DNA from: an uncultured Candidatus Peribacteria bacterium
Lineage (GTDB): Bacteria > Patescibacteriota > Gracilibacteria > Peribacterales > Peribacteraceae
Direction: 5' to 3'
NCBI GenBank assembly: GCA_964488165.1
Contig: CAZATU010000002.1
Location: forward strand, 137,334-201,333
Length of the DNA stretch: 64,000 nt
Shown piece after piece: positions 5,575-55,912 of the stretch. Each line of letters begins with the position of its first letter. The stretch's first letter is position 1. The notes under the pieces are model-generated. The model had not been told where the DNA came from. It saw only the letters and a list, made by a program, of their open reading frames with translations, and did not search any database. Position numbers and translations under genes: made by a program.

Positions 5575-6855
5575 ATGCTGCATCTCGATATCGCCGGCAC
5601 GCTTGCCAAGCTCATCACGCCGACCCACGGCATCCCCGACCAGGAGCTTACCGGGCTGCGCACGGCCATGCGCCGCTACGTCGCCGACTGGCTCCAGGAG
5701 CGCCGCGACGGGCAGCACGGCTGGGCAATGTGCCCCTACAACAAGCGCGTGATCGCGGCGTGCGAGAAGGTTGCCGAAACCGCCAAAGCCGAACGCATCC
5801 AAACCGTCGTGTGGATCGGCATCGGCGGCTCGGGCCTCGGCCCGCGCGTCATCCAGGAAGTGCTCGAAAGCCCCAAGACCGTCGAATTCCTCGTGCTCGA
5901 CACGATGGACCCCACGCTGCTGGAACACTACGCCGAGCTGCTCGACTGGAAGAACACGCTCGTCGTGGTGGTGAGCAAATCCGGCAACACGCTCGAAACG
6001 ATGAGCGGCTTCTTCTACTGCTACGAGCTGCTCAAAGCTGCGCGCGGCGCCAAGGCGCATGAGCGGGTGGTGGCCATCTCCGACCCTACCGAGAACCCCC
6101 TGCATGCGCTCGCGCTCAAAGAACAATTCGCCTTCCTGCCGATCCCGCCGGATGTCGGCGGCCGCTACTCCGTGCTCTCCCCCGTGGGGCTCCTGCCCGT
6201 GGCGCTGCTCGGCGGCGACGTGGACGCGTTCGTGCGCGGCGCGCGCGACTTCGATGAGCTCACGCAGCAAACCGTCCTCGAGGAGAACCCCGCGGCCATG
6301 CTCGCCTGCGTGCAATTCCTGCTCGATACCAAGCGCAACTATCCGATCCGCGTGATCATGCCCTACGCCCAGCGCCTCTCCTCGCTCGCGCGCTGGAACC
6401 AGCAGCTCATCGCCGAAAGCCTCGGCAAGAACGAGCTGAGCAACCCGATTCCCATGGCCGCCATCGGCACGCAAGACCAGCACTCGCTCCTGCAGCAGTG
6501 GATGGCGGGGCCGCGCTCGCAGTGGCACCTGTTCATCCGCGAGCTGGAGCGCCCGCGCGTGCAGCTCCCCGAAACGCTCCCCAAGCCCTTCGATCTCTAC
6601 GCCGGCAAAACCTTCGGCCAGCTCATCGACGCGTGCTACGAAGGCACGAGCCGCGCGCTCCTCTCGGTGAAGCGCCCGTCGGTGACGATCTCCATCACCC
6701 GCCTCGACGAGTACCACTTGGGGCAGCTGTTCTTCTGCCTGCTCGCGGAAGTGGTGTTCCTCGGCAAGCTCTATCGCATCGACCCCTACGGCCAGCCCGC
6801 CGTGGAAATCGGCAAGACCATCACCAAGGAGCTCCTGTCACGCGGACGCGCGTAG
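5575..6855 (+). CDS. pgi: glucose-6-phosphate isomerase
   Basis: IGIGGSGLGPRV..., VVVSKSGNTLET, DVGGRYSVLSPVGLLP, GTQDQHSLLQQ: SIS/PGI family motifs. Confidence 0.85.
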   Translation: MLHLDIAGTLAKLITPTHGIPDQELTGLRTAMRRYVADWLQERRDGQHGWAMCPYNKRVIAACEKVAETAKAERIQTVVWIGIGGSGLGPRVIQEVLESPKTVEFLVLDTMDPTLLEHYAELLDWKNTLVVVVSKSGNTLETMSGFFYCYELLKAARGAKAHERVVAISDPTENPLHALALKEQFAFLPIPPDVGGRYSVLSPVGLLPVALLGGDVDAFVRGARDFDELTQQTVLEENPAAMLACVQFLLDTKRNYPIRVIMPYAQRLSSLARWNQQLIAESLGKNELSNPIPMAAIGTQDQHSLLQQWMAGPRSQWHLFIRELERPRVQLPETLPKPFDLYAGKTFGQLIDACYEGTSRALLSVKRPSVTISITRLDEYHLGQLFFCLLAEVVFLGKLYRIDPYGQPAVEIGKTITKELLSRGRA

Positions 6856-9225: not shown

Positions 9226-10374
9226 TCACGTCACAATTTCATGCAAACGCTGCTCACGCGCGGCGTCGCGGATTTCCTGCGCAATACGGTCCCCCATCGT
9301 CATCGGGCGGCCATGCAGGTAGCGCGAGTACGGCGTCGCGGCGATGCCCGGGCAGGTGGTGGGGCGGAAGCAGATGCCAAACAGCACGATGTCCTCGCGG
9401 CTGTTCTCCGACACGATGGCGCCCTGCAGCGTAAACGACCCGATCATCCCCTTGCCCGTGGGGTCGATCTCGCGCGGGAGCGACTGCGTGATACTGATGA
9501 AGTCCTCGCCGATATCAAACGCGCGCTCCAGGAGCGACTCGCGCAGCGTGCTCGGGATGTGCCCGATCTCCACCATCTGCAACGGCACGTGGTCGAGGGC
9601 GATCTTCTGCTGCGACGGCGTCATGCGCTGGAAGCCCTCCAGGTTAGTCTGGCGGCGGATATCGATGCCCAGCAACTCCAGCTCGCTGCGCAGCGGCGAG
9701 AAGAAGAAGTGGAAGTTCACCGGCGAACCGATGATGTATTCCTCGATGATGGCGTTTTTGAGGTCTTTCTCCGTGATTTGGCGCAGCTTGATGCGGCGGG
9801 CGGCCTCCTCGTCGAAGCTCTCTTTGTCCCACGCAAGGAAGAACACGCGCTCGTAGCCGCGGAGATCTTCTTTGACCTTCACGATGGAAAGCCGATCGAT
9901 CTGCGACGGGTCATTGAAGCGCTGCGGGATGCGGATGCCCGCTTCGGCAAGCAGGTCGCGGCTGGTGTAGGGCTGGTTGCGGCCTTCGAGGCGCAGCAAT
10001 GAACGCGACCCGAAGATCGGCACGTTGAATTGCTCCTCAATGGACGTGAAGCTCGGGAAGCGCCTCCAGAAATCCTTGCTCTGCACGAAGATCGTGTTGG
10101 CCGTGCGCAGGCGCTGCTGCAGGTCGGGGGCGAGGATGTCGGGGAATTCCTCCACGGCGATCACGTCATCGATGCAGCCCACCATCTCTTCGCCGCTCCT
10201 GCGGGTGCGGTAGTGCTTGGCGTAGAGCGAATCGCGCCCTTCGTGCGCCACGATGAGTGTTTGCATGCCGGCATCCTTGGCGCCGGAAGCGATGTCGAGT
10301 GCGTTGCGCCCGCCAAAGCAGCCCACCGTGAGGCGCGAAACGTCATAGCCGTCGAGGAGCTTCGCGGTATCCAA
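9226..10374 (-). CDS. purP: 5-formaminoimidazole-4-carboxamide ribonucleotide (FAICAR) synthetase, archaeal PurP type (ATP-grasp)
   Basis: VGCFGGRNALDIASGAKDAGMQTLIV..., IEEYIIGSPVNFHFFFSPLRSELELLGIDIRRQTNLEGF..., GSFTLQGAI: matches the PurP (DUF1246/DUF1297) family pattern from memory. Confidence 0.75.
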   Translation of the reverse strand: MDTAKLLDGYDVSRLTVGCFGGRNALDIASGAKDAGMQTLIVAHEGRDSLYAKHYRTRRSGEEMVGCIDDVIAVEEFPDILAPDLQQRLRTANTIFVQSKDFWRRFPSFTSIEEQFNVPIFGSRSLLRLEGRNQPYTSRDLLAEAGIRIPQRFNDPSQIDRLSIVKVKEDLRGYERVFFLAWDKESFDEEAARRIKLRQITEKDLKNAIIEEYIIGSPVNFHFFFSPLRSELELLGIDIRRQTNLEGFQRMTPSQQKIALDHVPLQMVEIGHIPSTLRESLLERAFDIGEDFISITQSLPREIDPTGKGMIGSFTLQGAIVSENSREDIVLFGICFRPTTCPGIAATPYSRYLHGRPMTMGDRIAQEIRDAAREQRLHEIVT

Positions 10375-22929: not shown

Positions 22930-24648
22930 TTACTCCGACCAGAGCACGTGCACGCGGCGCTCCGGGTTTGCCGTGCGCGCATGCTTGCACGAAGCGGTGT
23001 GCACGCGCACCACGCCGCGGCCCACGATGCCCAGCACATCCGCGCCCGGGTGCTTCTCGGGCTTGCAGCACTGCGCGGGTTGCAGCGGCAACTGCACGTC
23101 GATGCCCCGCCCCGCGGAGCGTAAAAAGAGCGGCTTCGCCTCGCGCTTCTTCTTTGCCGGCCGCCGTGCAGGGGCCGCAACGGTCGCTGTCTCTATCTCT
23201 GCGGGTTGCCCCTCACGTTCCTGCAGGTAGCGCCGCAAGCGCGAGCGAGCCGACGCGGTGCGCAACAGCTTCATCCAGCGCGGCGAGGGCTGGGGGTTGC
23301 TCGCCCGCAGCACCTCCACAACGTCGCCATTCTCGAGCGTGTGGTTGAGCGCCACCACGCCGCCGTTCACGCGCGCGGCGCGGTACGCGAGGCCGATATC
23401 GGTATGCACCTGGAACGCAAAATCAAGCGGCGTCGCGCCTTCCGGCAGCTCGATCACATCACCCTTGGGCGTCAGGACGAAAATAGAATCGGTCTCGCGC
23501 CCCGTGCTTTCGCCGAAGAGATCCTCATTCTTGTCCATCTGCTGCATCAGACGGAAACGCTGCAACGCATGCTCGGTGCTGCCGCCCTCTTTGTAATTCC
23601 AGTGGGCGGCGATGCCGAATTCGGCCTCCTCATGCATCGCGTGCGTGCGGATCTGTACTTCGACGAACACCTCCGGCGGCGCCTTGGGCAACCCCGTGAG
23701 CGTGGTATGCAGGCTGCGATAGCCGTTGGGCTTCGGGAACGCGATGTAATCTTTGAACCGATGCGACACCGGGTGCGAGAAGCGGTGGAGCACCCCGAGC
23801 GCCACGTAGCAGTCTTCTTCTTTCGTCACGATCACGCGCAGCGCAAACAGGTCGTACACCGCCGTCAGCTTGAGCACGCCTTTGCGGCTCATCTTGGTGA
23901 ACGCGCTGTAGGGCTGCTTCTCGCGGTACTCCACCGTAGCGGCGACGCCGTGCTCCCGGAGCGAGTGCTCCACGGCCTCCGCCAATTGGGGGAGGAAATT
24001 CTGGAAACGTTCCTGCACGCTCTGCTGCTGCTCCACGATGCGCTCGGCATCCGAAGGGTACGCCAGCGGGAACGCCTTGCCCTCCAGCTGGTGCTTGAGC
24101 AGGTACACACCCAGGCTCGCAGCCATCGGTGCAAGCACTTTGAGCGCCACGCGCGCGGCAATCCTTCGCTCGCTCTCCGAGAGCTTGTCGCTATGGTCCA
24201 GCGCCACGACGCGGTCACACAGAAAGACGATGAGCGCGCGCACGTCGTCGCTCGCGCGCACCATCATGCGGCGCAGGGCATGCAAGGAAATGCGGCGCGG
24301 GCGCGACAGCAATTGGTACAGCAGGTACTCCCCCGCCACGATCGCGCGCACCGAGGAGCCGAAACGCTCTTCAAGCTCCAGGAGTGTCATCTGTTTCGCA
24401 TCGACGGCGTGGTGCAGGATGCAGGCAATGACGGCATCCTCGTCGGGTTTGAGCGGCAGCAGTGTCCGCAGCACGGAGCAGCAATGCTCCAGGACGGGCA
24501 CTCCCGACCAATGCCGTCCGTCGGCGTAGAGCTCCGCCGCGAGCGCAAAGGCCTTCTCCACCCGTTTACCACGCAAGACCGGGATATCCGGATAGGCGCC
24601 GCGCAGGGCGGGGAGAGCGGAAGCCTGCAGGGCACTCATACCGGCCAT
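22930..24648 (-). CDS. RelA/SpoT homolog, (p)ppGpp synthetase with a degenerate HD hydrolase domain
   Basis: Synthetase motifs YREKQPYSAFTKM, DLFALRVIV, FKDYIAFPKPNGYRSLHT, EVQIRTHAMHEEAEFGIAAHWNYKEG. TGS domain IFVLTPKGDVIELPEGATPLDFAF. The HD position reads ILHHAVD. The listed ORF 22930..25902 is over-extended into antisense rplJ/rplL. Confidence 0.85.
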   Translation of the reverse strand: MAGMSALQASALPALRGAYPDIPVLRGKRVEKAFALAAELYADGRHWSGVPVLEHCCSVLRTLLPLKPDEDAVIACILHHAVDAKQMTLLELEERFGSSVRAIVAGEYLLYQLLSRPRRISLHALRRMMVRASDDVRALIVFLCDRVVALDHSDKLSESERRIAARVALKVLAPMAASLGVYLLKHQLEGKAFPLAYPSDAERIVEQQQSVQERFQNFLPQLAEAVEHSLREHGVAATVEYREKQPYSAFTKMSRKGVLKLTAVYDLFALRVIVTKEEDCYVALGVLHRFSHPVSHRFKDYIAFPKPNGYRSLHTTLTGLPKAPPEVFVEVQIRTHAMHEEAEFGIAAHWNYKEGGSTEHALQRFRLMQQMDKNEDLFGESTGRETDSIFVLTPKGDVIELPEGATPLDFAFQVHTDIGLAYRAARVNGGVVALNHTLENGDVVEVLRASNPQPSPRWMKLLRTASARSRLRRYLQEREGQPAEIETATVAAPARRPAKKKREAKPLFLRSAGRGIDVQLPLQPAQCCKPEKHPGADVLGIVGRGVVRVHTASCKHARTANPERRVHVLWSE

Positions 24649-24694
24649 AGTCGGGGAAGCGTACCACTCCGGGCGCCCATCGAAAAGCTTGGCC

Positions 24695-24722
24695 TTGACT
24701 TCCGGCCGACCGCGACTACAAT
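24695..24722 (+). promoter_or_regulatory. sigma70-type promoter of rplJ-rplL
   Basis: TTGACT-16 nt-TACAAT. Confidence 0.65.
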
Positions 24723-24927
24723 GACGCTTACGACCGAAGACCGAGGGCATTAGGCCGCAGGCCGAAGGTAAGCCCCTCCGAGGTATACAGCATCGCCCAC
24801 CCGGCTCCGGCTTGGTGATTCGTGCCGTGTACCTCGCTGGTCTCCCGGTCGTCCCGGAGACCAGTTTTGCTATGTGGTCTCGGGGACGGCTGGGATTGTG
24901 TTTTTGCACTCTCCACCCTTTCTCGTC
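24723..24927 (+). promoter_or_regulatory. rplJ 5' leader with terminator-like hairpin (L10-leader-type autoregulatory element)
   Basis: ~200-nt untranslated leader. 9-bp hairpin CTGGTCTCC...GGAGACCAG (24837-24864) followed by TTTT. The position upstream of rplJ matches known L10(L12)4 feedback leaders. Confidence 0.5.
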
Positions 24928-25452
24928 ATGGCTCTCACCCGCGCATCCAAGGTCACGCAAGTCGCCGACCTCACGCAGAAATTCCAGAAGGCCACCTCCG
25001 TGGTCTTCACCCACTACATGGGTCTTTCCGTTGCGGACGTCAGCGCGCTGCGCCGCTCGCTCAAGGCAAAGAACGCGGAGATGAAAGTCGCCAAGAAGAC
25101 CTTGATCCAGCTGGCCGCGAAGCACGCGGGCATGCCGGACCTCGATGAATCCACCATTCCGGGCGGCATCGCCTGCATCTTCAGCTTCGGAGACCCCGTC
25201 GCGGGAGCCAAGACCGCTTCCCAGTTCGGCAAGGACAACGCCGCGATGAAACTGATTGCCGGATACTTTGACGGCAAATACCTCTCCAACCGCGAAACGC
25301 TGGAGTTTGCGAACTTGCCGGGCCGCGAACAGCTCTTGGCGACGTTCATGAGCATGGTCCGCTCCCCCCTCTCGTCCTTCGCATCCATCTGTTCGTCGCC
25401 GCTGCGCGGCTTCGCGATGGCGGTCCAGGAAATCGCGAAGAAGAAGTCGTAA
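24928..25452 (+). CDS. rplJ: 50S ribosomal protein L10
   Basis: MALTRASKVTQVADLTQKFQKATSVVFTHYMGLSVADVSALRRSLK... Start set at the internal ATG 24928. Confidence 0.95.
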   Translation: MALTRASKVTQVADLTQKFQKATSVVFTHYMGLSVADVSALRRSLKAKNAEMKVAKKTLIQLAAKHAGMPDLDESTIPGGIACIFSFGDPVAGAKTASQFGKDNAAMKLIAGYFDGKYLSNRETLEFANLPGREQLLATFMSMVRSPLSSFASICSSPLRGFAMAVQEIAKKKS

Positions 25453-25485
25453 CCCATTCTTTATCTCCTTTTTTCCCCTCCCCGT

Positions 25486-25887
25486 ATGTCCGATCAAGCT
25501 ACCATTCAGCTCTCGAAGGAAGAGCAGGCCGTCATCGACGCGCTCGAGAAGCTTAACGTTGTGCAGCTCAACAACGTCGTGAAGTTCATGGAACAGGCGT
25601 ATGGCATCTCCGCTGCCCCCGTGGCCGCCGTTGCCGCCGCCGCTCCCGCTGCAGCCGCAGCAGCTGCCGACGAGAAGGCTTCCTACAACATTGAGCTCAC
25701 CGACGGTGGCGCTCAGAAGATCGCCGTCATCAAGGTCGTCCGCGAATTGACCGGCTTGCCTCTCGGCGATGCCAAGGCCGCCGTCGACGGCGCTCCGAAG
25801 GTCATCAAGGAGAACGTCGCCAAGGAAGACGCCGAGGTTATGAAGAAGAAGCTCGAAGAGGCCGGCGCCAAGGTTACGCTCAAGTAA
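25486..25887 (+). CDS. rplL: 50S ribosomal protein L7/L12
   Basis: Ala-rich hinge and C-terminal KIAVIKVVRELTGLPLGDAKAAVDGAPKVIKENVAKEDAE..KKKLEEAGAKVTLK. Confidence 0.97.
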   Translation: MSDQATIQLSKEEQAVIDALEKLNVVQLNNVVKFMEQAYGISAAPVAAVAAAAPAAAAAAADEKASYNIELTDGGAQKIAVIKVVRELTGLPLGDAKAAVDGAPKVIKENVAKEDAEVMKKKLEEAGAKVTLK

Positions 25888-25907
25888 ATCGCCGATTCTC
25901 AACGAAA

Positions 25908-50657: not shown

Positions 50658-52160
50658 ATGCACGCCTACCGCTGGGGCATCGCGTTTTGTGCTGCCTGCA
50701 TCGCCACCATCGCGCTCGTCACCGTGATGCATTGGGAAGCAACGCATGCCGCGATCGCGGCGGCGGGGGCCGCCGGCGTCATCGCAGTGACGCGGCGCAC
50801 GCGGTGGACGCTCATCCTCGGGGCATGTTGCGGCGCGTGCGCGGCGATCGCGGCGTTGCACCTGGAACGCTGGCCCGCCTCCTCCCCGCTGCTGCCTCCG
50901 TTCGGCACCGTGCAGGTGCTCGGCGTCATTACGGAGCCTTCCGTTCCGCGAGGCTGGTACCGCAGCTACGTCATCGCAGCGGACACGCTGATCGACCGCG
51001 GCGTGAGCGTGCCCTGGCACGGCGTTGTTGCGCTACGCGAACAGTCGCTCCAACCCGCGATCGCCCAAGGGTCGCGGGTGGCCGTCCGTCTCCACGCCCT
51101 GCCGCCGCAATGCTGGATGGGGTCGCCGGGGGACCCCGCGTCCGCCGACGGCGAGATCATCAATGCCGCGAAAGGCGCAGGATTTGCAGCAGTGCTGGGA
51201 AGAGCACGTTTGGCCGTAGAGAGCCGCATTCAACGACTGCTACCCGAACCGCACGCGGGGTTGCTCACGGGGCTGCTTACCGGCGGGCAAGGGCGGTTGC
51301 CGGAGGCAACGCGTCTTGATTTTTCCAGCACGGGGCTTTCGCACATCACGGCGGTCTCGGGAACCAACATCACACTCCTGCTTATTCTGATCCAGCAGAT
51401 CCTCTGGTGGGCACCTCGCGGTGTACGCCTGGCGCTCGCGCTCGGCGCCGTGCTGTGTTTCAGCGTGTTCGTCGGTGGCTCGGCGTCGGTGGTGCGCGCG
51501 ACCATCATGGGGTGCATCGGCCTGCTCGCGCTGCACAGCGGGCGAATGGTGCACGCGCGTGCGGCACTGCTGTGGACGCTGACACTGATGATCCTCTGGG
51601 ACCCGTCAGCCCTGCGCGACGACCTGGGATTGCAGCTCTCCTTCCTGGCAACCCTCGGCCTCATGGAATCGGGGCCGATGCTCTCCCCACTTACCAAGAA
51701 GCTCCCCGAAGCCCTCGGCATCCAAGAAGCGGTCCACGCGACGCTCGCGGCGCAGCTCTGGGCCTCGCCCTGGTCGGCAAACGTGTTCGGCATGCTGCCA
51801 GCCATCGGAACACTCGCCAACATCCTCGTGGCTCCGCTGGTGCCGCTCGCCATGCTCTTCGGGGCGCTCAGCGTGCCAATCAGCCTCGTCAACATGACCG
51901 CGGGGCGCATCGCCGCCTACGTCGCATGGCTGCCGCTGGAAGGCATTCTGCAAAGCGCGTCGCAGCTCGCCAATGCGCCGGGGGCAACACTCGCCTGGCA
52001 GCCGGAAGTGACACTGCTGCTCCTGTGGTACGCGCTGCTCGCCGCCCTTTCCCTGCGACGGACGGTCACCAGCGATAGAGCAGCACCGTCTTCTGGCGCT
52101 TGCCCGGCACCTTCCACTCCCGCTCCGGCTTGCGCCCGGGGAACCGGAACGCATGGCTGA
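50658..52160 (+). CDS. comEC: ComEC/Rec2 competence channel protein (no C-terminal beta-lactamase domain)
   Basis: FSSTGLSHITAVSGTNITLLL, GGSASVVRATIMG. The C-terminal ~30 aa overlap the convergent gene and may be read-through. Confidence 0.8.
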   Translation: MHAYRWGIAFCAACIATIALVTVMHWEATHAAIAAAGAAGVIAVTRRTRWTLILGACCGACAAIAALHLERWPASSPLLPPFGTVQVLGVITEPSVPRGWYRSYVIAADTLIDRGVSVPWHGVVALREQSLQPAIAQGSRVAVRLHALPPQCWMGSPGDPASADGEIINAAKGAGFAAVLGRARLAVESRIQRLLPEPHAGLLTGLLTGGQGRLPEATRLDFSSTGLSHITAVSGTNITLLLILIQQILWWAPRGVRLALALGAVLCFSVFVGGSASVVRATIMGCIGLLALHSGRMVHARAALLWTLTLMILWDPSALRDDLGLQLSFLATLGLMESGPMLSPLTKKLPEALGIQEAVHATLAAQLWASPWSANVFGMLPAIGTLANILVAPLVPLAMLFGALSVPISLVNMTAGRIAAYVAWLPLEGILQSASQLANAPGATLAWQPEVTLLLLWYALLAALSLRRTVTSDRAAPSSGACPAPSTPAPACARGTGTHG

Positions 52161-52596
52161 CGACGCGGGTTCCGGGGCGCAGCTCGCGATCCATCTTCTC
52201 TTCCAGCGGCCTCATGACCAACGGCATCATGTAGAGAAACACGACATCCGCATCGCGCAGATCCTCGCTGCGCAGGTTCTTGCAGCGCAGATCGGCCCGC
52301 TTGCCCGCCCACCACAGCCGAAACTTCCCCAGGAGCCAGATGGTCGGGATGCACTCGCTCCCCTTCGCGCGCACCTGCGGACACGCATCAAGCGCGGCGA
52401 TGAGCAAACGCGCGTCACCCGCGCCCAGGTCGTACACGGTTTCCCCGGGCCGGAGTTCGGCGGCGGCGATCATCGCCTGCACGACGGGGTACGGCGTGGG
52501 AATGTAGGGAACCACGATGAACAAATGGGCGATGATCGTGATGGCCAACACGAGCGTCAGCACCATCAGGGCCAAAATCACAAGATCGATCCACAC
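52066..52596 (-). CDS. membrane-anchored class I SAM-dependent methyltransferase
   Basis: N-terminal TM, then VYDLGAGDARLLIAA (motif I) and ADVVFLYM. Confidence 0.7.
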   Translation of the reverse strand: MWIDLVILALMVLTLVLAITIIAHLFIVVPYIPTPYPVVQAMIAAAELRPGETVYDLGAGDARLLIAALDACPQVRAKGSECIPTIWLLGKFRLWWAGKRADLRCKNLRSEDLRDADVVFLYMMPLVMRPLEEKMDRELRPGTRVVSHAFRFPGRKPEREWKVPGKRQKTVLLYRW

Positions 52597-52651: not shown

Positions 52652-53572
52652 GTGGACACATTCGAGCGAACATTGCGGCACTACGCGTATCGCATGCAGG
52701 CGCCGTTGCTCACCAGCCCGACGCAAGAACTGTTCCCGCCTGCGCGCCTGACGCACATCGGCGGCGGCGTCTTCCAGCGCGTCTATCGGCTGCGCGATAC
52801 GCCGTGGGTCATCAAGGAGGCCCGCTGGGACCCCGCGCTCCCCGTGGGAACGATGGAAGTGCCGCTCCCGGGAGAGTCGCTCCACCAGCTGCTCTCGGTG
52901 TTTTCGACGGGGTTTTTGCCAACGCAAGAAGAAACGTTGCGGCAGTACGGGGAATACCTCGAATTCTCCCGGTACTTCGGCTGGAACGCCGAGACGGAAG
53001 AGCCGGACACCGCTCCGGATTTCGCCGCCATCCGCAGCGATCAGATCGCCATCCGGGAACGGCTGCTGACGCGCTTTGCGGACCTCGAACGCGAGTACGG
53101 TGCGCGGTTGCCCGCAAGTCTGCAAACCATCCTGGAGGGAGAGAGCGCGGCGCACAATTTCCTGCCGCGAGAATACCTGCTGTGGGGCGCGGCGATCGCG
53201 CCGGAAAACGGCGGCAAAGAAACCGCGTTTATCGTGCAGGAATTCGCGGAGGGAAAAACCCTGCACGACATGAAAGAGCACGAACTGTTCCAGTCGCCGT
53301 GGCGCGAACAAATGACGCTCTTGTGCTACCTCATTCTCCTGATGCAATTCGAGAAAGGCGTCTTGCCGGACACGCGCCCCCGGCAGCCCCTCTGGCAAAG
53401 CTACGACTGGCTCCTCAAAACCGACAACATCATCGCGGGCGGCCGCGGCATCACGTTCATCGACACGCGCTGGCTGTGGCGGCGGGGCGCCAACCCCGTA
53501 CTGCGGGGGTTCGTCATCCCGGAGCTCATGACGCAATCCTGCCTCAGCACCATCGGCACGCTCTGCGATTAA
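52652..53572 (+). CDS. hypothetical protein with protein-kinase-like features
   Basis: GTG start. IGGGVFQRVYRL...WVIKE (Gly-loop plus Lys), IVQEFAEGKTL (hinge-like), TFIDT (DFG-position-like). Weak, motif-level only. Confidence 0.55.
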   Translation: MDTFERTLRHYAYRMQAPLLTSPTQELFPPARLTHIGGGVFQRVYRLRDTPWVIKEARWDPALPVGTMEVPLPGESLHQLLSVFSTGFLPTQEETLRQYGEYLEFSRYFGWNAETEEPDTAPDFAAIRSDQIAIRERLLTRFADLEREYGARLPASLQTILEGESAAHNFLPREYLLWGAAIAPENGGKETAFIVQEFAEGKTLHDMKEHELFQSPWREQMTLLCYLILLMQFEKGVLPDTRPRQPLWQSYDWLLKTDNIIAGGRGITFIDTRWLWRRGANPVLRGFVIPELMTQSCLSTIGTLCD

Positions 53573-54066
53573 CGCATGAGAAGCGTCAGCAGCGCCAAGC
53601 CCGCGGCGGCGCACCCTCCGGCATAGATGTCATCAAGAAAGACCGATCCCGGCGTGCCGCGGCGGTCGACGGCGCGGATGCCGAACGGTTTGAAAATGTC
53701 GAAGAGGCGGAAGAGTACGAACGCGATCGTCAGGTGAACGAACGTCCCCGATGCCCAGAGCCCTCCGGGCGCGGCCGCGACGAGCATCCCTGCCACTTCA
53801 TCGAGCACGATGGATGGATGATCGACGTGCAACCCCGGGCGCGTGACGCGGCGCAAGATCACCGTGCCCGCCAACGCGATGAGCCCCGCAACGCCCCACA
53901 GCAACAACAGTCGCGTGAGCAAGGCATCGGGCAAATGCGCCTGCAGCACAAACACCGCGAGAGCAGCGCACGCACTCCCCCAGGTGCCGGGCGCGGGCAG
54001 CGCCGTACCGACCGGACCGAGCGTGAGAACGTTCCAAATCAGCCGACGGTAGAGGGGGTTGCGCAT
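53569..54066 (-). CDS. pgpA: phosphatidylglycerophosphatase A
   Basis: LGPVGTALPAPGTWGS..., IVLDEVAGM, FRLFDIFKPFGIRAVDR, VFLDDIYAG. Start set at the internal ATG 54066. Confidence 0.8.
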   Translation of the reverse strand: MRNPLYRRLIWNVLTLGPVGTALPAPGTWGSACAALAVFVLQAHLPDALLTRLLLLWGVAGLIALAGTVILRRVTRPGLHVDHPSIVLDEVAGMLVAAAPGGLWASGTFVHLTIAFVLFRLFDIFKPFGIRAVDRRGTPGSVFLDDIYAGGCAAAGLALLTLLMR

Positions 54067-54068
54067 GA

Positions 54069-54611
54069 TCAGTACCAGACCTTCTTCCAGCCGATCATAT
54101 ACGAAAGCCCGTTGGCGATACGGCTGAGAACGGGCCCCAGGATCAACAGGAAGACCGCGCCCAGCGGATGGGGGAAATACAGCGGCCAGAGGCAAAGCAG
54201 CGCGCCGATCATGTAATCGACGGCGTCCCAGGGTATCCATGGCGTCCCCGGGGGTCTGCCCAACGCGCGTTTCACGAAGCTCTTGGCAAGATCGCCGAGC
54301 AGGGCCCCCGTGCCGAGCAGGAAGCCAATCAAGACGCTCTGCGTGAACGTATCGTGCAGGAGGGTCACGGTGGAAAACGGCTCCGTCGCACGCAGCGCAT
54401 GCTGCGCCATCGACACGACCACGGCGGCAACGATACCCGTCACGAGCCCTCTCCATGTTTTGTGCGTACCGAAATGCCGTTCATCGATCGGCGCGCTCCA
54501 GCGCCGGAGGCCCGGGAGCTTGGCGGCGATGATCGGCATCGCGTTCGCGACGAACGCCGGTGTGAAGAGATACGCCAACCGCAATCCGAACAGCATCATC
54601 AGTAAAAGCAT
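54069..54611 (-). CDS. CDP-archaeol synthase-like protein (CarS/DUF46 family CTP-transferase)
   Basis: PIDERHFGTHKTWRGLVTGI, GALLGDLAKSFVKRALGRPPG...PWDAVDYMIG, and C-terminal ...YMIGWKKVWY parallel the A. fulgidus CarS layout recalled from memory. Confidence 0.7.
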   Translation of the reverse strand: MLLLMMLFGLRLAYLFTPAFVANAMPIIAAKLPGLRRWSAPIDERHFGTHKTWRGLVTGIVAAVVVSMAQHALRATEPFSTVTLLHDTFTQSVLIGFLLGTGALLGDLAKSFVKRALGRPPGTPWIPWDAVDYMIGALLCLWPLYFPHPLGAVFLLILGPVLSRIANGLSYMIGWKKVWY

Positions 54612-54657
54612 ACGACACTCGCTCGTCGGGTCCAGTGAGAAGCGGTACTATCTACGC

Positions 54658-55338
54658 ATGCGCATCGACGGAGCCGTATGTGTCATCACCGGCGCAAGCC
54701 GTGGCATCGGCCTGGCGCTTGCAACATCGCTCTTGGAGCAAGGCGCGGTTGTGCACGGATTCAACAGGGAAACCGGCCCCCTTTCGCACCCGCGGTACAC
54801 CCACCACAGCGTCGACGTGACCCGTTCTAAGGACATTCGCGAAGCACTCGCAGACTTCGACGAGCCGATTGACGTGCTGATCAACAATGCGGGTGTGATG
54901 CACCGCGGCAACATCCTCGCGCTTGACGAGGATGCGTTCGACGACCTCTTCAACGTCAACGTGAAAGGCTCCTGGCTCATGCTCAAGTATGGCCTCCCAC
55001 GCATGCAACGCGGCGGCATCGTCGTGCAAGTCAGCTCGCGCCACGCCGTGCGCCTGCCCGAGAACCCCGCCGCGTACGGGCTCACGAAGCTTTGGGTACT
55101 GCATATGGCCGATCTCGTCGCTCGCCTGGCACCGCACATCACGGTCAAAACGCTGTGCCTCGGCCCGGTCGATACCGAGCTGTCGCGCAAGGACGTCTCG
55201 CCCGAAGCCCTCGCGGAAAAGCGTAAAATTATGTGTGCGCCGGAGCAGATCGCCACGGAAATCACCGCGATGCTGCAGAACGAACGCGGCTCAATGCTCG
55301 TCTTCAATCCCCGCACGCATCGCCACGACATTCGCTGA
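54658..55338 (+). CDS. short-chain dehydrogenase/reductase
   Basis: VITGASRGIG, NNAGV, S...YGLTK catalytic triad context. Confidence 0.9.
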   Translation: MRIDGAVCVITGASRGIGLALATSLLEQGAVVHGFNRETGPLSHPRYTHHSVDVTRSKDIREALADFDEPIDVLINNAGVMHRGNILALDEDAFDDLFNVNVKGSWLMLKYGLPRMQRGGIVVQVSSRHAVRLPENPAAYGLTKLWVLHMADLVARLAPHITVKTLCLGPVDTELSRKDVSPEALAEKRKIMCAPEQIATEITAMLQNERGSMLVFNPRTHRHDIR

Positions 55339-55912
55339 TGCGACTATCGACGAGCAGGCTCGAGGGACGCGCGCGCCGCAAATCATCGAACACCGACAAC
55401 CCCACGCAGAATGCCATGAGGAACAGTGCTGCCGACGAGGAGATGCACCAGCCGATCGTTTGGATCGAGATCGCGAACTCTCCGATCATGCCGCCCGCGC
55501 CGATCACCCCGAGCGGAATGGCAACGGATTGCATGACGGTTTTGAGCTTGCCTGGCCAGCGGGCGGGGATCACGACGCCGCGCGCATAGGCGTAGCTGCG
55601 ATACCCGTCCACAAGCAGTTCGCGCCCCACGGTGAGCGCCACGATCCACGCGGGAATCACCTCCTGATACTGCAAGCCGATGGCATAGCCGAGCACGAGC
55701 AGTTTGTCCGCTAGCGGATCGAGGAACGCGCCCCAGTCGCTCTGGAGGCGATGCTTGCGAGCGATGTAGCCGTCGAGCGCATCCGTGATCGCCGCCACGA
55801 TGAAGACGCCAAGCGCAATCGCCATCGCATGCGGCACAGGGAAGAGCAGCGCCGCCACACCCACCGGGGTGAGCAGCATACGCAATGCCGTGAGGTGGTT
55901 GGGTGCTACCAT
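55304..55912 (-). CDS. pgsA: CDP-alcohol phosphatidyltransferase (PgsA-like)
   Basis: DALDGYIARKHRLQSDWGAFLDPLADK = D-G-x2-A-R-x8-G-x3-D-x3-D motif. Start set at the internal ATG 55912. Confidence 0.88.
   Translation of the reverse strand: MVAPNHLTALRMLLTPVGVAALLFPVPHAMAIALGVFIVAAITDALDGYIARKHRLQSDWGAFLDPLADKLLVLGYAIGLQYQEVIPAWIVALTVGRELLVDGYRSYAYARGVVIPARWPGKLKTVMQSVAIPLGVIGAGGMIGEFAISIQTIGWCISSSAALFLMAFCVGLSVFDDLRRARPSSLLVDSRISECRGDACGD

Follow-up and report, generated by a model that had tools for sequence, protein, structure and literature searches.

Our subject is a gene for a protein related to CarS, the enzyme that activates archaeal ether lipids with CTP, found beside bacterial phosphatidylglycerol genes in DNA from an uncultured Candidatus Peribacteria bacterium, which belongs to the Candidate Phyla Radiation (CPR). 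The DNA analysed is 64,000 nucleotides (nt) long (assembly GCA_964488165.1, contig CAZATU010000002.1, positions 137,334 to 201,333) and we refer to this whole stretch as the window. The locus was read on the minus strand, between positions 53500 and 55960, together with a list of open reading frames (ORFs). Its features are listed below, with protein lengths in amino acids (aa) and, for pgpA, the Pfam gathering threshold (GA).

54611..54069, minus strand: carS-like gene, 180 aa; PF01864; predicted CTP:lipid-phosphate cytidylyltransferase of the CarS family with five transmembrane helices
54066..53569, minus strand: pgpA, 165 aa; phosphatidylglycerophosphatase A; PF04608, 97.7 bits (GA 28)
55912..55304, minus strand: pgsA, 202 aa; PF01066, 129.6 bits; TIGR00560, 126.6 bits
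54658..55338, plus strand: classical short-chain dehydrogenase/reductase (SDR), 226 aa; PF00106 (adh_short), 101.9 bits
54612..54657, no strand: 46-nt spacer from which carS and the SDR gene diverge; presumed carS-pgpA promoter region
52652..53572, plus strand: lineage-specific protein, 306 aa; no Pfam or NCBIfam match; weak protein-kinase-like fold; possible accessory protein

The carS stop codon (TGA) ends at position 54069, two bases (tc) follow, and the pgpA ATG occupies 54066..54064. Hence, the 2-nt gap between these same-strand genes, reported in an initial annotation of this DNA, is confirmed to the base. Given this spacing, carS and pgpA are probably co-transcribed. From the carS start it is 692 nt to the 3' end of pgsA and 1.3 kb to its 5' end, the latter being the distance at which a pgsA-like CDP-alcohol phosphatidyltransferase (CAPT) had been annotated. 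The score is above the TIGR00560 equivalog cut-off (126.6 versus 109.1), so this is a bona fide pgsA. Note that the public gene caller starts pgsA at the Met at 55879, giving 191 aa instead of 202. PgpA scores below the E. coli-type equivalog NF008288 (57 versus 226). The SDR gene, on the opposite strand between pgsA and carS, is divergent from carS and convergent with pgsA (35-nt overlap). The gene for the 306-aa protein is convergent with pgpA (4-nt overlap). We presume that the 46-nt spacer is the carS-pgpA promoter solely from this gene arrangement; a consensus scan of the promoter region gave no sigma-70-like site, and a terminator scan gave one hairpin of chance level. The region is present in DNA metagenome runs only, namely four bioreactor runs.

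The 180-aa protein is no shortened CdsA but belongs to the CarS branch of the CTP-transferase superfamily, as Pfam matches, profile matches and the fold of a structural model all point to CarS. Briefly, PF01864 matches at 84.2 bits (GA 22, E=1.4e-23), with residues 10-180 covering model positions 6-175 of 175. The CdsA family, PF01148, gives a partial match only, surrounding the catalytic core (residues 51-118 on model positions 170-229 of 264, 34 bits). When a profile built from 40 homologs was compared with the PDB, the sole match was A. pernix CarS (ApCarS, 5GUF; E=5e-30), and T. maritima CdsA (TmCdsA) was out of reach at E<=1. An AlphaFold (AF2) model has five long helices, a predicted local distance difference test score (pLDDT) of 95 and a predicted template-modelling (TM) score of 0.89. 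The best Foldseek match to this model is again 5GUF (E 4e-5, TM-scores 0.69/0.78, root-mean-square deviation 2.4 Å), followed by TmCdsA (4q2g; TM-scores 0.49/0.35). Note that the score against the NCBIfam CarS equivalog NF003114 (CDP-2,3-bis-(O-geranylgeranyl)-sn-glycerol synthase) is 112.6 bits, under the cut-off of 148, and that a 52%-identical relative (locus L086) scores 110.9. On the CdsA side, the score for NF008635 is 17.3, with a cut-off of 385. The initial annotation had assigned the CarS/DUF46 motif layout to 54069..54611, and both the family and the coordinates stand: the profile searches place the protein inside the family, and all four motifs are present (HKTWRG, residues 50-55; GDLAKSFVKR, 106-115; WDAVDY, 128-133; and C-terminal WKKVWY). 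Judged by sequence comparison, the assignment to CarS is far beyond chance.

Like ApCarS and the A. fulgidus enzyme (AfCarS), the window protein belongs to PF01864, has a length typical of the family (~175-180 aa), and combines five transmembrane helices with K-T, G-D, K-R and D-x-x-D motifs. Unlike these archaeal enzymes, it is encoded by a bacterial gene, beside bacterial pgsA and pgpA, and its substrate is probably diacyl phosphatidate rather than digeranylgeranylglyceryl phosphate (DGGGP). CdsA is a larger protein, of ~270-285 aa, with nine transmembrane helices. The CdsA enzymes of T. maritima (4Q2E/4Q2G) and E. coli share the superfamily and, in our proposal, the reaction and pathway position of the window protein, which differs in its 180 aa, its five helices, and the lack of both the N-terminal domain and the CdsA signature. 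For that signature we used a PROSITE-type pattern, S-x-[LIVMF]-K-R-x4-K-D-...-H-G-G-x-D-[RK]-x-D. The CarS-like protein contains SFVKR, without the HGG-x-DR-x-D portion.

To compare residues, we aligned the window's clade and other CPR and DPANN homologs with 120 TACK-type archaeal CarS sequences. Eight residues (K51, T52, G106, D107, K114, R115, D129 and D132) do not vary among 40 homologs, and the corresponding residues of the 120 canonical archaeal proteins are at least 88% conserved. The polar core kept relative to canonical CarS comprises these eight together with N23, G55, N167 and K176. In the CarS family, the K-T motif follows transmembrane helix 1, G-D and K-R lie in helix 3, and D-x-x-D precedes helix 4. 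The assignment of such polar residues to the CTP/Mg site comes from the published ApCarS structure, as reviewed in PMC9385802. Other positions, at least 90% conserved in the canonical set, have changed in the window's clade: E54R, R116A, R121P, Q130A/G (A in the window protein), F133Y and H163S. Furthermore, a loop of ~9 residues after D43, with conserved D and G (D-x-G...D-G), has been lost. These substitutions and the deletion set apart either the window's clade or the combined CPR/DPANN clade; E54R is common to all CPR and DPANN sequences. H163S sits in the last helix, which in ApCarS shapes the lipid grooves that set CarS apart from CdsA (PMC9385802). Given that role, the clade-specific changes may be candidates for altered lipid specificity.

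We then turned to gene context. A profile scan of species-representative genomes confirmed 385 CarS-like loci, and our linkage counts use the best 80 of the 385. Hidden Markov models were built from the window proteins and iterated on six-frame ORFs of the loci, with matches mapped around carS. At 56 of the 80 loci, carS has a CAPT gene no more than 1.5 kb away, distributed as follows.

Peribacteria/Peregrinibacteria/Gracilibacteria: 17/30
Saccharibacteria: 9/10
Other CPR: 6/7
DPANN-labelled archaea: 15/18
Loci with doubtful taxon labels: 9/15

PgpA is encoded within 1.5 kb of carS at 14 loci, every one from CPR. Adjacent carS and pgpA on one strand occur at 12/80 loci (10 Peribacteria/Gracilibacteria and 2 other CPR) and also at L085. 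Contiguous pgsA-carS-pgpA, all on one strand, are found at L012, L013, L015, L019, L038, L040 and L084; where ORFs were listed (L013 and L015), successive ORFs of the block overlap, which suggests an operon. The window's order is reproduced exactly at L085, from a 57%-identical relative: pgsA(+) SDR(-) carS(+) pgpA(+). Hence, the wiring to a phosphatidylglycerol head-group pathway proposed in the initial annotation is borne out, as the linkage of carS, pgsA and pgpA recurs in many CPR species. The pgsA-carS-pgpA block is often preceded by a gene for a YdjM/Zn-phospholipase-C-like membrane hydrolase and followed by one for an NAD-dependent epimerase-type SDR.

Saccharibacteria have a different arrangement. 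No PgpA is encoded nearby and, in 7/10 loci, a PHP-domain phosphoesterase gene is directly upstream of carS. This gene lies between pgsA and carS at L039, L055, L074, L080, L081 and L082; at L071 it is directly upstream of carS and there is no CAPT match. Since the PHP phosphoesterase stands in place of PgpA, it is possibly a non-homologous phosphatidylglycerophosphate phosphatase. Other CPR loci connect carS to further lipid genes. Three PlsC-type acyltransferase genes follow carS in tandem, on the same strand, in a Kerfeldbacteria genome (L072). A PlsC-family gene and an alpha/beta hydrolase gene flank the cluster at L015. The 52%-identical relative has psd-pssA-carS (pssA matches TIGR00473 at 137 bits, cut-off 107) and, beyond these genes, a convergent gene for a YegS/DgkB-family lipid kinase of diacylglycerol (DAG) type. 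The psd-pssA-carS arrangement suggests that the CarS enzyme feeds more than one CDP-DAG-dependent head-group route. Thus, through pgsA/pgpA, pssA-psd, PlsC and lipid-kinase genes, carS is wired to the phosphatidylglycerol and phosphatidylserine/phosphatidylethanolamine branches and to enzymes that produce phosphatidate out of acylated precursors. Judged by gene context, its position is that of CdsA in ordinary bacteria.

Two further observations concern these loci. A 163-aa membrane protein (Zn-dependent phospholipase C, YdjM) is encoded directly upstream of pgsA at L012, L013, L015, L031, L038, L040 and L084, and might release diacylglycerol or phosphatidate from scavenged lipids. Separately, at L011, L016, L018, L021, L025 and L043, carS (~6000-6520) is split by one in-frame stop under translation table 11. 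In these Gracilibacteria/Peribacteria-labelled genomes, code 25 (UGA=Gly) gives an uninterrupted gene, in line with the recoding known in Gracilibacteria. The window itself uses the standard code.

The closest relatives of the CPR proteins outside CPR are in DPANN archaea. Here, CarS of Woesearchaeota and Nanoarchaeota is 35-40% identical and, like the CPR gene, usually has a CAPT partner within 1.5 kb. These organisms are also host-dependent with minimal lipid synthesis. In contrast to the CPR loci, however, none has PgpA, the CAPT belongs to another sequence cluster and is often on the opposite strand, and the membranes are expected to be archaeal. We built a neighbour-joining (NJ) tree from 104 sequences and 165 columns. 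Note that this tree is rough, carries no bootstrap or maximum-likelihood support, and that sampling was biased towards relatives of the query. CPR and DPANN CarS group in a single clade to the exclusion of the TACK, Thermococci and halobacterial proteins. The window protein sits in a purely bacterial Peribacteria/Gracilibacteria subclade, the one with PgpA linkage, and other CPR sequences are intermingled with those of Woesearchaeota and Nanoarchaeota. This topology would be compatible with inter-domain transfer between CPR and DPANN. The loci with doubtful labels (L022, L027, L035, L045, L050, L051, L063-L065, L067-L069, L073 and L075) derive from third-party annotation (TPA) metagenome-assembled genomes named 'uncultured Methanosarcinales archaeon' or 'uncultured Gammaproteobacteria bacterium'. 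Their CarS sequences fall among Woesearchaeota/Nanoarchaeota or CPR, and the labels are probably placeholders.

We favour, with somewhat better than even confidence, a model in which the CarS-type enzyme is a CTP:phosphatidate cytidylyltransferase, standing in for CdsA, whose CDP-diacylglycerol goes to PgsA, with PgpA acting next, in a CPR bacterium that scavenges lipids. Phosphatidate would be taken up directly, or a lipid kinase or PlsC would make it from scavenged diacylglycerol or lysolipids. The CarS-type enzyme would use phosphatidate and CTP to make CDP-diacylglycerol, PgsA would combine this with glycerol-3-phosphate to give phosphatidylglycerophosphate, and the translationally adjacent PgpA would convert the latter to phosphatidylglycerol. 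We infer, in this model, cytidylyltransferase activity, an acyl rather than isoprenoid substrate, and a genome with no separate cdsA. Published work on CPR provides a setting. The polar lipids of a small-cell fraction, 165 of whose 186 organisms were CPR, were acylglycerols only, and CPR genomes are without complete lipid synthesis (PMC7242380). For a soil Saccharibacterium, it has been proposed that scavenged diacyl lipids are interconverted via a 'putative phosphatidate cytidylyltransferase', PgsA and others (PMC6031116); the paper leaves unstated whether that cytidylyltransferase gene is CarS-like.

Our search for cdsA covered the 64-kb window and ~12-kb flanks of 84 loci (~0.9 Mb). As the initial annotation stated, there is no bacterial-type cdsA in the window, either in a Pfam survey of ~50 ORFs or in a six-frame scan for the CdsA-type signature. 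The same signature had no match in six-frame scans of the 84 fetched loci. The Pfam survey of the window was also negative for geranylgeranylglyceryl phosphate synthase (GGGPS), for UbiA-type DGGGP synthase (DGGGPS), for glycerol-1-phosphate (G1P) dehydrogenase, and for PlsC and PlsY. Complete Peribacteria genomes are 1.25 Mb in size with 58.5% GC (PMC4736985), so the window is probably ~5% of a genome of this kind. Replacement of CdsA, one of two possibilities raised initially, is thus favoured by gene context, while the absence of cdsA applies to the window and the flanks of the 84 loci only.

Several points weigh against our model. Since the window is such a small part of the genome, a canonical cdsA could sit elsewhere. 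Linkage of carS to PlsC and lipid-kinase genes is confined to a few loci and does not occur in the window. More importantly, as reviewed in PMC9385802 and PMC4244643, characterised CarS (in A. fulgidus and M. thermautotrophicus membranes) strongly prefers unsaturated archaetidic acid over phosphatidic acid, and AfCarS does not complement an E. coli cdsA mutant. Hence, family membership alone argues for an isoprenoid substrate. The protein could then be a true CDP-archaeol-type synthase, selective for DGGGP as the characterised enzymes are, acting on mevalonate-derived isoprenoid (possibly ether) analogues of phosphatidate, made or remodelled by the cell, with an archaetidylglycerol-like lipid produced via PgsA and PgpA. 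Peribacteria are without fatty-acid synthesis, yet their mevalonate pathway is nearly complete and has no assigned purpose (PMC4736985), and a study cited in PMC7852524 indicates that bacterial PgsA and phosphatidylglycerophosphate phosphatase can process CDP-archaeol. We nonetheless consider this reading unlikely. The window has none of the GGGPS, DGGGPS/UbiA and G1P dehydrogenase genes that it calls for. In relatives, carS is tied instead to PlsC, DAG-type kinase and PssA/Psd; the CPR-rich fraction mentioned above held acylglycerol lipids only; and the window's clade has lost several canonical TACK CarS residues along with the conserved loop. Clustering of neighbouring genes at the 80 loci revealed no recurrent CPR family besides those named here and unrelated housekeeping genes, although the remaining families are unannotated and no UbiA/GGGPS profile scan was aimed at the loci. 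Gene context and lipidomics likewise lend no support to the unusual ether or isoprenoid CDP-lipids suggested in the initial annotation. It is distinctly improbable that Peribacteria use the CarS-type enzyme on self-made isoprenoid phosphatidates, deriving phosphatidylglycerol-like lipids via PgsA and PgpA and so an archaeal-style or mixed membrane. Because the context does not support such lipids, relevance to the mixed-membrane debate, also claimed initially, is indirect: the locus bears on the substrate range of the CarS family and provides no evidence for a mixed membrane.

An outside but real possibility is that the enzyme is promiscuous, accepting any scavenged phosphatidate, acyl or isoprenoid, whichever the stereochemistry of its glycerol. 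Promiscuity would account for near-identical enzyme types in CPR bacteria and DPANN archaea, both thought to depend on host lipids. The single CPR/DPANN clade, interleaved outside the window's subclade, and the retention of a CAPT gene next to carS in both groups are in keeping with this. However, the tree is crude and its sampling biased, and the window's subclade is purely bacterial with its own substitutions, which suggest specialisation rather than promiscuity. A different function within the superfamily can also be considered, as the CTP-transferases include CTP-dependent dolichol and phytol kinases. Accordingly, the protein might be a dolichol-kinase-like polyprenol or lipid kinase that recycles cell-wall carrier lipids, and not a glycerolipid cytidylyltransferase. 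Peribacteria do invest heavily in polyprenol-linked envelope synthesis (PMC4736985), but we regard this as very unlikely: the match is full-length and CarS-specific with cytidylyltransferase motifs intact, the conserved CAPT partner needs a CDP-activated substrate, and no peptidoglycan or carrier-lipid genes are linked. Finally, an archaeal fragment could have been joined to bacterial DNA during assembly or binning. Nothing besides the archaeal family name favours such an artefact, the chance of which is negligible, and we reject it on four grounds. The identical gene, with its neighbours, was assembled independently in at least four sequencing runs of bioreactor metagenome. The flanks are bacterial (pgpA, ComEC, KsgA, trigger factor, SecF, LexA, RelA/SpoT, LytR and M23 peptidase), as are the window's genes for Y-family polymerase, ValRS and PNPase. 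Dozens of other CPR genomes share the arrangement. The region is also uniform in GC content; for the window this is 58-69%, and the standard genetic code reads well. In one-per-species genomes, the closest CarS homologs are those of Ca. Peregrinibacteria, Peribacteria and Gracilibacteria (<=51% identity).

The presence of the CarS family in CPR is not new, since many CPR proteins are already named 'CDP-archaeol synthase' in databases. In the literature searched, outside subscription content, we found no paper on CarS in CPR/Patescibacteria or on its operon context, and Coleman 2019 contains no analysis of CarS. In the usual account, it is CarS and CdsA that separate the archaeal from the bacterial lipid pathway at the CDP-activation step (PMC9385802). 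Here, a large bacterial radiation, with membranes reported to be fatty-acid-based, has a CarS-type enzyme encoded in operon-like clusters with PgsA, PgpA, PssA, Psd, PlsC and DAG-type kinase. If our preferred model is right, and diacyl phosphatidate is used, isoprenoid specificity is not intrinsic to the CarS family, the substitutions particular to the clade become candidate determinants of tail specificity, and CPR reconstructions listing 'CdsA' or 'CDP-archaeol synthase' need re-reading. The cluster would then be a minimal 'head-group remodelling' module, one that could let episymbionts that scavenge lipids turn those of the host into phosphatidylglycerol of their own. With this enzyme type present in both CPR and DPANN, inter-domain transfer between organisms of similar lifestyle is plausible. 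While by itself no proof of mixed membranes, the locus offers a natural and directly testable case for whether CarS-type enzymes are intrinsically isoprenoid-specific.

The genes around the cluster are less readily interpreted. Relatives of the SDR in the PDB are only generic SDR/FabG-like proteins, and its NCBIfam relatives are equally generic. An SDR gene adjoins the cluster at L005, L008, L010 and L074, and in the window's order at L085. A 319-aa extended SDR (NAD-epimerase/3-beta-HSD type) is encoded directly after pgpA at L012, L015, L019, L038 and L084. The Peribacter genome paper reports an orphan 'fabG' as the one fatty-acid gene (PMC4736985), and this may be the SDR gene of the cluster. 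A role for the SDR as a missing glycerol-3-phosphate/G1P or acyl-dihydroxyacetone-phosphate reductase is speculation. The 306-aa protein is one of a family of 32, nearly all from Peregrinibacteria/Peribacteria (Peribacteraceae), with homologs encoded near carS at L010, L018, L021, L023, L025 and L043. Its AF2 model (pLDDT 89) has only protein or lipid kinases as top Foldseek matches. Since these matches are weak (E 6e-3, TM-score <=0.36) we assign no function, but a kinase-like catalytic set might be formed by the invariant K55, D240, N259 and D271. A 176-aa membrane-anchored methyltransferase gene, at 52066-52596 on the minus strand, recurs beside the lipid cluster in Peribacteria (L005, L008, L010 and L023). 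Its best NCBIfam match is an archaeal protein-lysine N-methyltransferase (61 bits, under the cut-off of 200).

Two observations concern genes elsewhere in the window. The RelA/SpoT homolog (22930-25902, minus strand) was called as 990 aa, with the HD, synthetase and TGS domains confined to the part beyond residue 450. The N-terminal ~450 aa, without a Pfam match, are either a long extension or the product of an over-long ORF call. The ORF at 9226-10374 (minus strand) matches DUF1297 and DUF1246, a combination that we take to mark FAICAR synthetase of the PurP type, which is typical of archaea. On that assignment, the bacterial window would encode a second archaeal-type enzyme.

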